Positions 14,288-62,623 are shown, counted from the first letter of the whole stretch. The stretch is DNA of 62,623 nucleotides, filler included, from Candidatus Aminicenantales bacterium (GCA_049515535.1; 8 parts of 8 records of this genome joined end to end with filler, not necessarily neighbours in it); one strand, 5' to 3'. Numbers and translations: made by a program. The notes: a model not told the origin generated them from the sequence alone.

Positions 14288-14824
14288 CTAAATTTTCTCG
14301 ACCTGTAAGAATTCCAGCTCCACGGGCGTCGATCGGCCGAAGATCGTGACCAGCACCTTCAGCGTGCTGCGTTCATGGTTGACGTCTTCGACGATGCCGT
14401 TGAAGTTGAAGAACGGCCCGTCGATGATGCGGACGGCTTCCCCTTTCTCGAAGGAGTGCTTCGGCTTGGGTTTCTCCGACGTCGTCTCCATGTGTTCGAC
14501 GATCTGGCTGACTTCGTCCTTGCTCAGCGGCGAAGGCTTTTTCCCCGAGCCGACGAACCCCGTCACCTTCGGTGTCTCGCGGATGATGAGCCAATTCTCG
14601 TCCGTCATTTCCATTTCGATCAGGATGTAGCCCGGGTAGGACCTCTTGGTCGAAACGACCTTCTTCCCCATTTTGATCTCGATGACGTCCTCGGTGGGGA
14701 TGATGATCTGGCCGATCTGGTCCTGGATGTTCATCTCGAGCGCGCGCTGATGGATGGATTCCGCCACGAACTTTTCAAATCCCGAATACGTATGAACGAC
14801 AAACCAATTTTTCGCCATGATCAT
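14288..14824 (-). CDS. nusG: Transcription termination/antitermination factor NusG
   Basis: [34 protein letters not shown]. Confidence 0.98.
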
Positions 14825-15040: not shown

Positions 15041-15109
15041 GGTTTCCTTATCCTTCCGACCGAAATTGGCAATCTCTTCGGAGCGATCCTTTATGTTGTT
15101 TTCATCGGG

Positions 15110-15183
<74 letters not shown>

Positions 15184-15211
15184 GTCTCGTCAGATCCTTT
15201 CTCCAAATCCC

Positions 15212-52856: not shown

Positions 52857-53595
52857 CTTCTTCACGCTCGGGCTCCTCGTCTCGGCCCGGACGAACAAGA
52901 GCTCGACCAGCTTCCTGATTCTGCTCTTTATCTGGGTGACGTTCGTCACGATCATCCCCAAGGTCTCGGTCATGGCGGCCGGCCGATTGTACCCCATTCC
53001 ATCGGTCCATGAGATCACGGCTAAGAAAGACGCCTTCCTCCAGCAGATCCAGGGGATGAGCCAGAAACAAGCCATGGATTGGATCAAGGCCAATTCTCCG
53101 AAAACGCCGCAGGAGCAATCGGCTTTCCTGGAGAAATTGAAAAAGTATCTGGAAGATTTTCAGCAGGAACTGACCGCGAAAATCGACGCGAACAATGCCG
53201 CCCTCGAGCGCGATTACCAGACCCGGAAAAAATCACAGGAAATGCTGGCCATCAACCTCTCCCGGATTTCGCCCGCCTCGGCCTTGACGTTCTCCACGAT
53301 GAGCCTGGCCCGGACGGGCCTCGACGAGCATGAGAGTTTCCTGACATCCATTCGCGCCTACAAGCCGATTTTCACCAAATGGGCTAATTCCAAGATGATA
53401 AAGAGCATCGACTTTACCGGAACAGGCCAGACCGTAAAAGTCGTCCTGGACGATATGCCCATGCACAAGTTCGATTCCGAGTCGCTCAGCAAGTCCTTTT
53501 CCCGGACGCTGCCCGACTTCGGCTTGATGCTCTTTCTCATTATCATCTTCTTCGCCGGGGCCTATGTCTCCTTCCTCAAATACGACGTCCGATGA
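52857..53595 (+). CDS. ABC-2 type permease, 3' part (ends YDVR)
   Basis: LGLLVSART...LLFIWV..IIP, LSRISP, FLKYDVR*. Confidence 0.85.
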
Positions 53596-57065: not shown

Positions 57066-57804
57066 TCAGCGGACGTCATATTTCAGGAAGGAGACATAGG
57101 ACCCGGCGAAGAAGATGATGATGAGAAAGAGCATCAAGCCGAAATCGGGCAGCGTCCGGGAGAAGGACTTGCCGAGCGACTCGGAATCGAACTTGTGCAT
57201 GGGCATATCGTCGAGAACGACTTTCACGGTCTGGCCTGTCCCGGAAAAGTCGATGCTCTTCATCATCTTGGAATTCGCCCATTTGGTGAAGATCGGCTTG
57301 TAGGCGCGGATGGAAGCCAGAAAACTCTCATGCTCGTCGAGGCCCGTCCGGGCCAGGCTCATCGTAGAGAACGTCAAGGCCGAGGCGGGCGAAATACGGG
57401 AGAGGTTGATGGCCAGTATTTCCTGCGATTTTTTTCGGGACTGGTAATCGCGCTCGAGGGAGGCGTTGTTCGCGTCGATTTTCGAAGTCACTTCCTGCTG
57501 AAAATCTTCCAGAAACTTTTTCAATTTCTCCGTGAAAGCCGACCGCTCCTGCGGCGTTTTCGGAGAATTGGCCTTGATCCAGTCCATGGCTTGCTTCTGG
57601 CTCGTGCCCTGGATCTGCTGGAGGAAGGCGTCTTTCTGGGCCGTGATCTCATGGACCGAGGGAATGGGGTACAATCGGCTGGCCGCCATGACCGAGACCT
57701 TGGGAATGATCGTGACGAACGTCACCCAGATAAAGAGCAGAATCAGGAAGCTGGTCGAGCTCTTGTTCGTCCGGGCCGAGACGAGGAGCCCGAGCGTGAA
57801 GAAA
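57066..57804 (-). CDS. ABC-2 type permease, 3' part; near-identical paralog of 52857-53595
   Basis: Co-linear 219-aa C-terminal segment with few substitutions. Confidence 0.87.
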
Positions 57805-59999: not shown

Positions 60000-60105
60000 G
60001 CACGTTCCCCCAAACGGTCGCCAAAAGCAATCCCGTCAAGAACAGGGCGATGATTCCAACCTGGAATATCTTATTCCTTAAACCCTGCTTTCTGTCGTCT
60101 ACCAT
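60000..60105 (-). CDS. Membrane/secreted protein, N-terminus only
   Basis: MVDDRKQGLRNKIFQVGIIALFLTGLLLATVWG..., divergent from trpB2, truncated. Confidence 0.45.
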
Positions 60106-60137
60106 AATTCCCGGGCTTATGTAAGGGGAAATTTCCC

Positions 60138-60166
60138 TTGACACGCGGGCTTCCGCAATTTATGAT
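60138..60166 (+). promoter_or_regulatory. sigma70 promoter of trpL-trpB2
   Basis: TTGACA-N17-TATGAT; predicted +1 at about 60174. Confidence 0.85.
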
Positions 60167-60173
60167 CTGGCCC

Positions 60174-60257
60174 ATGTTCGAAGACGCGCTCGTTTTTATC
60201 CATACTGCCCGCAAGTGCGCGTTTGTCCTTCTTCCCTGGATCTGGTGGGCGGCCTAG
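60174..60257 (+). CDS. trpL: Trp-rich leader peptide (27 aa), probably leaderless
   Basis: MFEDALVFIHTARKCAFVLLPWIWWAA*; 3 Trp in 4 codons; ATG 7 nt after the -10 box; upstream of trpB2. Confidence 0.8.
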   Translation: MFEDALVFIHTARKCAFVLLPWIWWAA

Positions 60258-60416
60258 CCCGCCCTATAGGTCTGCCCCCGTCTATTCCCCTTGATAAGGA
60301 GACGTGTGTCCGGAGTGACATGACTTCGGGCGCCCGTCCCGATTGTGAGAGAAACGACAATCCCCGGACACGCTCACGCCGTGCCGAAGGGAGCAGGAGA
60401 ATAAGGAGAAACGCTC

Positions 60417-61457
60417 ATGCGATACGCATCTCGAAACCCCGAATATCTTCCGCAAGCATATTACAATATCAAGGCCGACTTGCCGGAGCCGCCCAAGCCG
60501 CCGCTCCACCCAGGCACACATGAACCGCTTAAACCCGAGGACCTGGAAATGATCTTTCCCAAGGGCCTCATCCGCCAGGAAATCTCTTCAGACCGCGAGG
60601 TGCCAATCCCCCCCGATGTCCTCGAGGCGTACTCTGCCTTCCGGCCGACGCCGCTCGTCTATGCCTCGGCCCTCAGGAAGCATCTTGGAACGCCGGCCCA
60701 CATATTCTATAAGTACGAGGGTGTCGGCCCCGTCGGCAGCCACAAGACCAACACGGCGCTCATGCAGGCTTATCTGGCCGCCCAAGAGGGCATCACGGCG
60801 CTGGCTACGGAAACAGGCGCCGGCCAGTGGGGCTCCGCTCTCGCCTATGCCGGCTCCCGGCTCGGCATAGAGACGCGGATTTTCATGGTCAGGTCGAGCT
60901 TCCGTCAGAAACCCGGCCGCCGAATTCTTATGGAACTTTTCGGGGGCACCGTTCTCGAAAGTCCCAGCGACACGACCGATGCCGGCCGTTCTTTCTACGC
61001 CAAAGACAATAATCACCCCGGCAGTCTCGGGATCGCCATCTCCGAGGCCGTCGAGTTCGTAGTCAAGAACCCGCGGGCCAAGTATGCGCTGGGGTCAGTC
61101 CTCGACAGCGTTCTCATGCACCAGACCGTGATCGGCCTCGAGGCTGAAAAACAGATGGCCGAGTTCGGAATGGTGCCGGACATGGTCATCGGCTGCGTCG
61201 GCGGCGGCTCGAATTTCGCCGGCCTGGCCTTTCCGTTTGTCCGGAGGAACCTCCAGGAGGGAAGGAAGGCACGCTTCATCGCCGTCGAGCCGGATGCCTG
61301 CCCTTCGTTAACGAAAGGCGAGCTTCGCTACGATTTCGGCGACAGCGTCGGCATGACTCCCCTTCTTTACATGTACACTCTGGGGAAGGAGTTCGTGCCG
61401 CCTCCGCTCCACGCGGGAGGTCTCCGCTATCACGGCATGGCGCCGCTTGTGAGTCAC
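60417..61457 (+). CDS. trpB2: TrpB2-type tryptophan synthase beta subunit (truncated)
   Basis: [69 protein letters not shown]. Confidence 0.93.
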
Positions 61458-61557: not shown

Positions 61558-62623
61558 TATTGACACCTGCATAATAAATGTCCTATACTCTGATCCGGAG
61601 GGAATCGATGAGACCATCCGGAAGCGCAGAGTACCTGGAAGGGCGACGCCTGCGGGCCATGGAGTACTTGGATCAAGGACTCCAGCCCGGGGAGATCGCG
61701 CGCAAGGTTGGGGTTGACCGTCGCAGCGTCCGGCGCTGGAAAGCGAGTATCCAGAAAGACGGGCCGGGAGCCATTCGGGCCAAGCCGCTGCCGGGTCGAC
61801 CGCGACGACTCAACCCAGGGGCAAAAAAGAGATTGGAAGCGATCCTGCTGCGGGGCGCCCGCGAGACGGGATTCTCGACGGACCTGTGGACCTGTCCCCG
61901 AGTCGTTCAGGTGATCCAAAAGGTCTTCGGGGTTCGCTATCATGTCGACCATATCGGACGGATCTTGCACTCTCTGGGCTGGAGCCCCCAGAAGCCGCAG
62001 CGCCGGGCCGTCGAGCGGGACGAAGCCTTGATCCAACGTTGGGTCCAGGCCGACTGGCCCCGGGTAAAAAAAACGCCGCACGGATAGGCGCCGCTCTCGT
62101 CTTTCTCGACGAAAGCGGCTTCCTGATGATGCCTCTGGTGCGGCGGATCTGGGCCCCCCGCGGTCAGACACCCCTCATCCGGCACCGGACCAACTCCTAT
62201 CGTAAAGTTTCCGCCATCGCGGCCCTGGTTGTCTCTCCCGACCGAGACCGTGTCCAGTTGTTCTTCCGCCTTCATCCCCAGGCCAATATCAACGCCGGCT
62301 CGGTCCTCTCGTTCCTCCAGCAGCTCCGCCGGCATTTGCAATGTCCTATCGTCCTGTTATGGGATCGGTTCATGCCTCATCGGGCTCGCCTCGTTCATGA
62401 TTATATCTCCGGGAAAGAAGACTGGAGATCGGAGTTCCTGCCAGCCTATGCTCCGGAGTTGAACCCTGTGGAGAACGTCTGGTGTTATCTGAAGACCAAT
62501 CCGATGGCTAACGAGGCGCTCTTCGAACTGGATAACCTGGCGTCATGGCCGGGTCCTCCAAAGGCGCGAACCATTGCTTCGCTCCCTCCTCAGCCACACT
62601 CCTCTTTTTTTGCGCTTGAAATA
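61558..62623 (+). mobile_element. IS630-family insertion sequence (orfA 61608-62087; DDE domain in -1 frame from about 62071)
   Basis: HTH/winged-helix orfA (LWTCPRV...GWSPQKP); A8 slippery run 62066-62073; -1 frame VFLDESGF...LWD...FLPAYAPELNPVE; contig begins and ends with TA. Confidence 0.9.

Follow-up and report, generated by a model that had tools for sequence, protein, structure and literature searches.

The described system closest to the leader analyzed here is Ms5788A of M. smegmatis, a leaderless polycysteine short ORF; disruptive and compensatory mutants showed that stalling of a ribosome there prevents a duplex from covering the downstream Shine-Dalgarno (SD) sequence (10.1101/834739). 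Pairing of leader codons with the SD sequence was predicted for the LEU element located before actinobacterial leuA (PMC1262725). In B. subtilis, the leader peptide rtpLP with its Trp codons takes part in the control of anti-TRAP translation (PMC10327191), and short upstream open reading frames (uORFs) gate the Rho-dependent attenuators tnaC, speFL, cruR, and mgtL (PMC12360218). At the thiM riboswitch, Rho polarity follows a block of translation, and the Rho target is located in the coding region (PMC5499598). A literature search, with subscription papers and supplements outside its scope, found no description of the leader reported here.

This leader is located in a window of 62,623 nucleotides, the whole stretch of DNA that was analyzed, which is a string of small contigs with N linkers between them. 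A promoter of the sigma-70 type (60138..60166, plus strand) consists of TTGACA at 60138-60143, a 17-nt spacer, and TATGAT at 60161-60166, matching the consensus at 11 of 12 positions. Seven nucleotides separate the −10 hexamer from the ATG at 60174, which opens a leaderless, trpL-like uORF of 27 codons (60174..60257, plus strand) ending with TAG at 60255-60257; its product is MFEDALVFIHTARKCAFVLLPWIWWAA, 27 aa in length. Trp22, Trp24, and Trp25, encoded at 60237, 60243, and 60246 on the plus strand, form a W-I-W-W cluster (60237..60248), the presumed sensor. To judge from the promoter spacing, transcription may start with the uORF AUG or very close to it, and together with the missing SD sequence, this spacing is consistent with a short ORF at the very 5′ end of the transcript. 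The original prediction had named this promoter, the ATG at the expected +1 position without an SD sequence, the uORF with its Trp cluster close to the 3′ end, and the lack of a U-tract terminator, and all of these features were found as described; the plus strand of the window leader contained no terminator-like site. When Rfam models were compared with the leader at E ≤ 10, the only match was a chance hit with an E value of 6.4 on the other strand and to an unrelated family, and neither the Rfam Trp leader model nor the T-box riboswitch model matched.

The gene downstream of the leader, trpB2 (60417..61457, plus strand), encodes a TrpB-like pyridoxal phosphate (PLP) enzyme and is cut by the end of the contig. 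Its product was identified as TrpB2 by model NF009057 (538 bits at a cut-off of 366); TIGR01415 gave 495 versus 519 on the truncated 347 aa, and the TrpB1 model gave 98 versus 392. A near-identical copy (L002) has a trpB2 frame of 432 codons. The contig (C30 of the window's own genome G000; 1458 bases, window 60000-61457) contains the leader and the first 347 TrpB2 codons and nothing else. The TrpB2 proteins nearest to the window's copy, with 83-84% identity, come from the family of another genome, G043, and G000 possesses its own trpB2 with 71% identity to the window copy, on the long contig C6 and with the same kind of leader. Contig C30 was therefore probably misbinned in G000, which leaves the reality of the leader unaffected. 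A contig of G043, which is placed in another family, starts with the same first base as C30 and differs from it at 1 of 1458 positions.

Other parts of the window deserve a brief comment. Near-identical C-terminal segments of an ABC-transporter permease are located on opposite strands of two small contigs (52936-53595 and 57066-57725), a further hint that some of the small contigs may be misbinned or come from mixed strains. An IS630-family transposase (61608-62623), preceded by the promoter match TTGACA-18-TATACT, is split into two frames at an A-run near 62067-62075, likely a programmed frameshift. The first contig of the window carries nusG (14291-14806) and, on the minus strand, the gene for the only tRNA-Trp found in G000 (15107-15184).

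Is this leader an isolated curiosity? A strict promoter-uORF scan of G000 yielded 87 candidates, with tandem Trp codons only in the window's leader; it overlooked the copy on C6, whose leader was recovered by the hairpin pattern. (Near position 330889 of contig C2, minus strand, a promoter-linked leaderless uORF of 30 codons with four Met codons precedes a C-rich tract, possibly a Met-sensing analogue.) Beyond this genome, the leader was present at 30 of 30 distinct close trpB2 loci selected by their protein and at 7 of 7 further close copies retrieved later. The pattern search gave matches in 118 of the 251 genomes of the class, chance matches included. Of approximately 155 matches listed, 80 were taken by eye, of which 68 were usable before trpB2, 3 were located before trpE, and 9 were dropped (7 in an unrelated coding context, L078, and L106). 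The strict pattern, applied to 185,579 species, produced 72 matches, 67 of them with a TrpB2 match in the locus. On the basis of these sequences, the leader is a real, conserved, class-wide Trp leader family in Aminicenantia.

The set used for statistics comprised 117 loci in 55 clusters, which are not fully independent of each other. Since 87 of the 117 loci were chosen by a pattern that includes the Trp pair and the hairpin, only the first 30 loci are informative with respect to the conservation of these two features. Excluded were L002 as a duplicate of L001 and, from 22 later loci, four without a called downstream start plus L158 and L179; L167 and similar loci with other taxon labels were retained because they cluster with Aminicenantia loci. 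The common layout begins with the TTGAC promoter and a start codon at the expected +1 position, followed by pyrimidine-rich codons, the Trp pair, a GCGG-N6-CCGCC element, a stop codon 4-9 codons past the first Trp, and a tract that is first C-rich and then U-rich. The uORF was preceded by TTGAC in 109 of 117 loci, in 103 of these 109 at 34-40 nt before the assigned start, and an SD-like motif preceded the start in only 2 of 109. The uORFs had 21-46 codons with 115 ATG and 2 GTG starts. Among the 30 protein-selected loci, 29 contained tandem Trp codons, and the pair was in frame with the assigned start in 28 (three starts reassigned); in 23 of 52 clusters, an extra Trp was located two codons upstream. 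The tandem Trp codons are kept, whereas the remainder of the uORF peptide drifts. At L005, the Trp pair is out of frame by a one-base shift, and L014 and L227 have one Trp codon changed to Cys, with the anti-SD helix intact in L014.

The family also has defined borders. The leader precedes three trpE genes, so that it is not special to a stand-alone TrpB2 as had been supposed, and in one genome (G188) it is located before both trpE and trpB2 (L036 and L037), forming a small Trp regulon. It was absent from all 15 loci of a TrpB2 paralogue with 46-49% identity and present at two TrpB2 genes with 52-55% (L107 and L229). It was lacking at all 18 trpB2 loci inspected in other classes of the phylum; three of these (L212, L217, and L221) had Trp-rich leaders with a hairpin-U terminator, as judged by eye. 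With Trp-Trp-Trp leaders and/or hairpin-U terminators, these three and L220, for which only the terminator is visible since the contig ends, resemble classical attenuators. Upstream of trpE at L186 (G031:C40), a leaderless uORF ends with four Tyr and two Trp codons and is followed by a terminator hairpin plus U tract, a classical attenuator within Aminicenantia that may sense Tyr besides Trp. At L088 and L229, the stretch between the Trp uORF and the main gene (trpE and a 52% TrpB2 gene, respectively) contains another short, SD-led frame that extends in a different frame across the beginning of the main gene, possibly an extra translational layer.

The codons preceding the Trp cluster constitute the putative “anti-SD” arm (60216..60238, core 60219-60230, plus strand), assigned by pair probabilities, the enrichment of anti-SD words, and an excess of pairing with the locus's own ribosome-binding site (RBS). 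Its partner, the 3′ arm, is the trpB2 ribosome-binding region (60394..60421, plus strand) with the SD sequence AAGGAG at 60403-60408 and the AUG at 60417; the 16S tail in G000 ends in CCUCCU and matches this SD sequence. Positions 60219-60230 are complementary to 60403-60414 at 11 of 12 positions with a single G-G mismatch, as the original prediction had stated, and the 11 pairs had ensemble probabilities of 0.86-1.00. Chance would provide 0.0006 copies of an 11/12 match to this 12-mer, itself picked after the fact, in the 84-nt uORF. The proposed extension to about 20 bp was confirmed as a helix of 60216-60238 with 60394-60417, whereas the coverage of the AUG was complete instead of partial because 60210-60213 also pairs with 60418-60421. 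The leader fold had a free energy of −101.8 kcal/mol (z = −3.71), and none of 200 shuffles was equally stable. Between the arms, a variable spacer (60288..60391, plus strand), the sequence of which is not conserved, joins them by local hairpins closed by 60288-60292 and 60387-60391 in the ensemble fold; from stop to start, 55-195 nt were counted in 101 loci. An inner stem thought to bring the arms together (60306-60313 with 60364-60371) is complementary on paper but had a probability of 0.00, and forcing it cost 8.3 kcal/mol.

How strongly a ribosome on the uORF would influence this helix was calculated with folding at equilibrium and 37°C. When a 29-nt ribosome footprint was masked, opening of the window's RBS cost 14.4 kcal/mol in the free leader, 15.6 kcal/mol with the ribosome at the stop, and 7.3, 5.9, and 11.5 kcal/mol with the ribosome at Trp22, Trp24, and Trp25, respectively. 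A ribosome on Trp22 halved the predicted cost, which was the outcome anticipated for masking the Trp region. In silico, the RBS was open only for a ribosome at codons 13 to 24, approximately, and closed again at the stop. The value for Trp22 was stable over four footprint sizes (6.0-7.7 kcal/mol), and those for Trp24 and Trp25 depended on the footprint (5.8-12.3 and 7.0-13.1 kcal/mol). With a second, queued ribosome, the RBS would also open at the stop (6.7 kcal/mol). Shuffling of the anti-SD arm lowered the mean cost in the free leader to 8.1 kcal/mol. At all eight loci that were profiled, picked for strong pairing, the open window included the Trp codons and closed by the stop.

Comparison of the clusters supports a function of the pre-Trp tract as anti-SD. 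At fourfold-degenerate third positions, the six codons before the Trp pair had pyrimidines in 180 of 195 cases compared to 203 of 343 further upstream in the uORF. With the Trp codons held fixed too, CUCCUU was present before the Trp pair in 13 of 55 clusters (4-5 expected) and CCUCC in 22 of 55 (8-9 expected). Behind the hairpin, a tract just as rich in pyrimidines has few such words (UCCU in 4 of 55 clusters versus 16-18 expected), as would be expected if this tract must not block the RBS; depleted in anti-SD words and without an own-RBS excess, it was ruled out as an anti-SD. An unadjusted test of own-RBS pairing was in part a GC effect (pre-Trp segment versus coding-region control, p = 0.005-0.015) and was replaced by a composition-adjusted test. 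In the latter, the pre-Trp segment paired better with its own RBS, with an excess of −1.1 to −1.3 kcal/mol (p = 0.0002; GC-stratified, p = 0.002-0.005) and four null control pairings. Perfect helices of at least 8 bp with the own RBS occurred in 12 of 55 clusters versus 3.6 expected. Lineage-specific matches of 8-13 bp to differing SD contexts were found at L012, L030, L033, L039, L040, L074, L076, L104, and L153, and in genus g13, the SD variant GGAC is matched by GUCC in the leader.

This signal is not evenly distributed. A ribosome at the first Trp codon opened the RBS by more than 1.4 kcal/mol compared to one at the stop in 26 of 55 clusters, 20 were unchanged, and 9 showed the reverse (Wilcoxon p = 0.004). 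The proposal that a stalled ribosome frees the trpB2 RBS thus gained comparative and in silico support while being predicted for 26 of 55 clusters only. A cluster of 11 loci, L090-L100, possesses no usable anti-SD (−3.9 to −11.9 kcal/mol). When segments were swapped between path-disjoint relatives, with four loci left out, the own combination was better in 20 versus 22, 17 versus 18, and 18 versus 9 cases at rising distance cut-offs, and the last result alone was marginal (sign p = 0.06; Wilcoxon p = 0.03). Accordingly, the own-RBS signal is carried by a tail of 12-15 lineages. Relatives kept the uORF, the Trp codons, and the leaderless start class-wide, as had been expected of them, but the sister swaps were null to marginal.

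Behind the Trp cluster, a GGGCGG-6nt-CCGCCC hairpin (60247..60264, plus strand) overlaps the last Trp codon and, in the window, the stop. It had likewise been predicted, and its arms (60247-60252 and 60259-60264) were present in the window ensemble with probabilities of 0.56-0.73. All 30 protein-selected loci had the same GCGG-N6-CCGCC core, even though covariation would be possible at most of its pairs; L206 has a G-U variant that preserves the stem. Covariation at the loop-closing position was weak in the 30 unbiased loci (13 versus 11.4 expected, p = 0.32) and reached 28 versus 21.9 expected in the 55 clusters (p = 0.04). Candidate roles are that of a pause hairpin, such as the 1:2 hairpin of classical trp leaders, or a shield of the G-rich Trp codons. 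The hairpin is followed by a G-poor tract, first C-rich and then U-rich (60271..60292, plus strand), a candidate Rho and/or pause site at the 99th percentile of C-G skew compared to 673 other 5′ regions of G000. Hardly any G occurs in the 30 nt that follow the hairpin, and in the family, the tract is unstructured with a C/G ratio of 4.7-6.5. Hairpin and C/U tract are the best-conserved features and are not needed by the anti-SD model.

Taken together, the leader is very probably some kind of ribosome-read Trp sensor. We favor, with moderate confidence, a translational attenuator that senses Trp and is possibly tightened by Rho, with the anti-SD switch as the working mechanism at this locus. 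The transcript would begin with the uORF AUG or in its immediate vicinity, and ribosomes would load without an SD sequence. With charged tRNA-Trp being plentiful, they would translate through the Trp cluster and dissociate at the stop; the pre-Trp codons, then mostly free, should pair with the trpB2 SD sequence, spacer, and AUG as computed, which would block trpB2 initiation. When Trp is short, a ribosome would wait on Trp22, Trp24, or Trp25 with others queued behind it, covering the anti-SD arm and leaving the RBS open, as the footprint calculation suggests, so that TrpB2 could be made and salvage indole to Trp. Translation of trpB2 would thus probably occur only when ribosomes stall for lack of Trp. 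The G-poor tract might be a second tier, a Rho-loading or pause site that would end transcription if trpB2 remains untranslated. By analogy to thiM, Rho as a second tier acting on untranslated trpB2 fits this scheme.

A more elaborate version of this attenuator is conceivable, albeit doubtful. One stalled ribosome would have two outputs, unmasking the RBS and thereby allowing the ribosome that initiates on trpB2 to separate the polymerase from a fixed Rho site, and the hairpin, instead of being a plain stem, would be recognized by its sequence, either by a protein or by the ribosome. The whole would be a classical attenuator made translational by loss of its terminator.

The physiological setting was considered as well. 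Tight binding of indole and the use of phosphoserine have been described for TrpB2 enzymes (earlier work cited in PMC11917138). TrpA was found in 8 of 61 genomes and neither in G000 (94% complete) nor in G043 (96%); TrpE was not found in G000, the only genome searched for it. No conserved neighbor gene of trpB2 was evident in the 32 loci listed. Tryptophanase-family genes, in an assignment that does not resolve them from tyrosine phenol-lyase, were present in four of four genomes searched. Two such genes are located in G000 (on C17 and C5), and in genus g13, one is convergent to trpB2 at a distance of about 1 kb in L232 (G048:C115) and G029:C3:115106-118578. The proposed wiring of trpB2 to Trp shortage where TrpA and TrpE were not found would favor indole-to-Trp salvage as the job of TrpB2, and induction of trpB2 upon Trp shortage would suit such a salvage.

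Among the alternatives, Rho-dependent transcription attenuation as the primary switch survives best, although we consider it unlikely. The pyrimidine tracts flanking the hairpin would then be a split Rho site, the upstream half of which is hidden by a Trp-stalled ribosome, leaving too little free RNA; once the ribosome leaves, Rho would terminate near the U-run, and SD pairing would be a secondary gain in some lineages. What keeps this explanation alive is the conserved C/U tract, which the original prediction had missed and which looks like a Rho site. The tract is more widespread than the anti-SD switch, being above the 95th percentile of C-G skew of the 673 other 5′ regions in 48 of 55 clusters, with G000 alone as the background and a measured window that includes the CCGCC used for selection. 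The U-run is located at a constant distance from the hairpin (medians of 22-25.5 nt) whatever the length of the spacer, Rho was found in 60 of 61 genomes and in both G000 and G043, and uORF-gated Rho sites are known, one of them inside the uORF (cruR; PMC12360218). Lineages without an anti-SD such as L090-L100 would also be accounted for; they may rely on the Rho tier, which is why this alternative retains some weight. Its geometry is awkward, however, because a Trp-stalled ribosome covers the upstream tract and would expose the more C-rich downstream one, to which the melted hairpin would add further length, at the very time when expression of the gene is needed. Moreover, the upstream tract is enriched beyond composition in SD-complementary words and not in C runs (CCCC, 7 versus 9-14 expected), and the matching to the own RBS is not predicted by a Rho switch. 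The NusG-pausing motif TTNTTT was present in 15 of 55 clusters. Presumably, given our placement of the residues, the NusG of G000 keeps Thr, not Asn, of the pair named in PMC12288461.

Termination without Rho is improbable. The Trp-codon arm and the C-rich tract might form a noncanonical intrinsic terminator with an interrupted stem, or a ribosome might trigger release of the polymerase at the U-run, for instance, when a ribosome at the stop collides with a polymerase paused there. Indeed, the downstream tract was more complementary to the Trp-codon arm than shuffles (−7.9 versus −6.8 kcal/mol; CCACC in 10 versus 5 of 55 clusters) and enriched in UUUU (28 of 55 versus 16-17 expected). In local folds, however, a stem closed within 1 nt of the U-run in only 9 of 55 clusters, 3 of 55 beating tract shuffles, and the terminator was rejected since 46 of 55 clusters lacked a stem at the U-run. 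The collision was rejected because the U-run tracks the hairpin and not the stop (12-31 nt). The window's copy, moreover, has a weak stretch instead of a real U-run, and even within the class, a classical attenuator with a terminator has a different appearance (L186).

That the uORF acts by ribosome delivery, via reinitiation or local unfolding at the stop, or by mRNA stability, with little true Trp sensing, is very improbable. In its favor, 9 of 55 clusters had an RBS that was easier to open with a ribosome at the stop, and reinitiation was proposed for leader genes (PMC4833913). The stop-to-start distance of 55-195 nt, however, is far from the 10-13 nt peak given there, and only in front of Trp-synthesis genes were the tandem Trp codons maintained, with drift in the remaining peptide.

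Compared with the known systems, the favored translational attenuator is not without precedent, a point missed by the original prediction: the arrangement has been tested for Cys in mycobacteria (10.1101/834739) and predicted for Leu (PMC1262725). Going by its description, Ms5788A shares with the window leader a leaderless short ORF of similar length (90 nt) with an amino-acid codon cluster at its 3′ end, a spacer of about 100 nt, a long duplex over the downstream SD sequence that is freed by a stalled ribosome, and no intrinsic terminator, with polarity as a second effect. Its host belongs to an unrelated phylum, it senses Cys instead of Trp, and its Cys codons pair with the SD region themselves, whereas in the window leader, this pairing involves the codons preceding the Trp pair and the Trp codons enter a separate hairpin; a hairpin plus C/U tract is not mentioned in the accessible description. 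The LEU element is likewise a leader peptide without terminator and with a predicted pairing to the downstream SD sequence, but its Leu codons pair directly with it, a pseudoknot is involved, and it is a prediction only.

In the anti-TRAP case, the ribosome at the rtpLP leader stop blocks the SD sequence. Like the window leader, rtpLP is a Trp-codon leader peptide that uses ribosome stalling to influence translation initiation of the next gene; it differs by being SD-led, behind a T-box, close to the downstream SD sequence, and without a long-range RNA helix. The Rho-dependent tnaC, speFL, cruR, and mgtL share a short uORF beside a pyrimidine-rich, G-poor tract and the lack of an intrinsic terminator. 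In contrast to the window family with its nonconserved peptide and biosynthetic genes, tnaC senses free Trp via the nascent peptide at the stop and is on at high Trp. Classical trp leaders (E. coli trpL and those of Streptomyces and Corynebacterium; PMC1262725) have in common with the family a short leader with tandem Trp codons, the position before trpE and trpB2, and a GC hairpin starting at the Trp codons. They contain an antiterminator/terminator pair and a hairpin-U element, whereas in the window family, neither a terminator hairpin directly followed by a U tract nor a competing antiterminator was present. Since such classical attenuators precede the same genes in neighboring lineages, trpE in the same class (L186) and trpB2 in other classes (L212, L217, and L221), the conversion from transcriptional to translational control and the share of Rho in it can be directly asked. 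The family adds an RNA family missing from Rfam, comprising more than 100 natural variants, some with a strong anti-SD and others lacking one, and the self-contained Trp sensor of 250 nt should be easy to test and is possibly reusable. By this comparison, the principle of an anti-SD attenuator is known for Cys from Ms5788A; the leader differs from it by Trp as the presumed sensed amino acid, the use of pre-sensor codons as the putative anti-SD, and the hairpin with its C/U tract, and it would extend amino-acid-sensing translational attenuation from Cys in mycobacteria to Trp in an unrelated, uncultured class.
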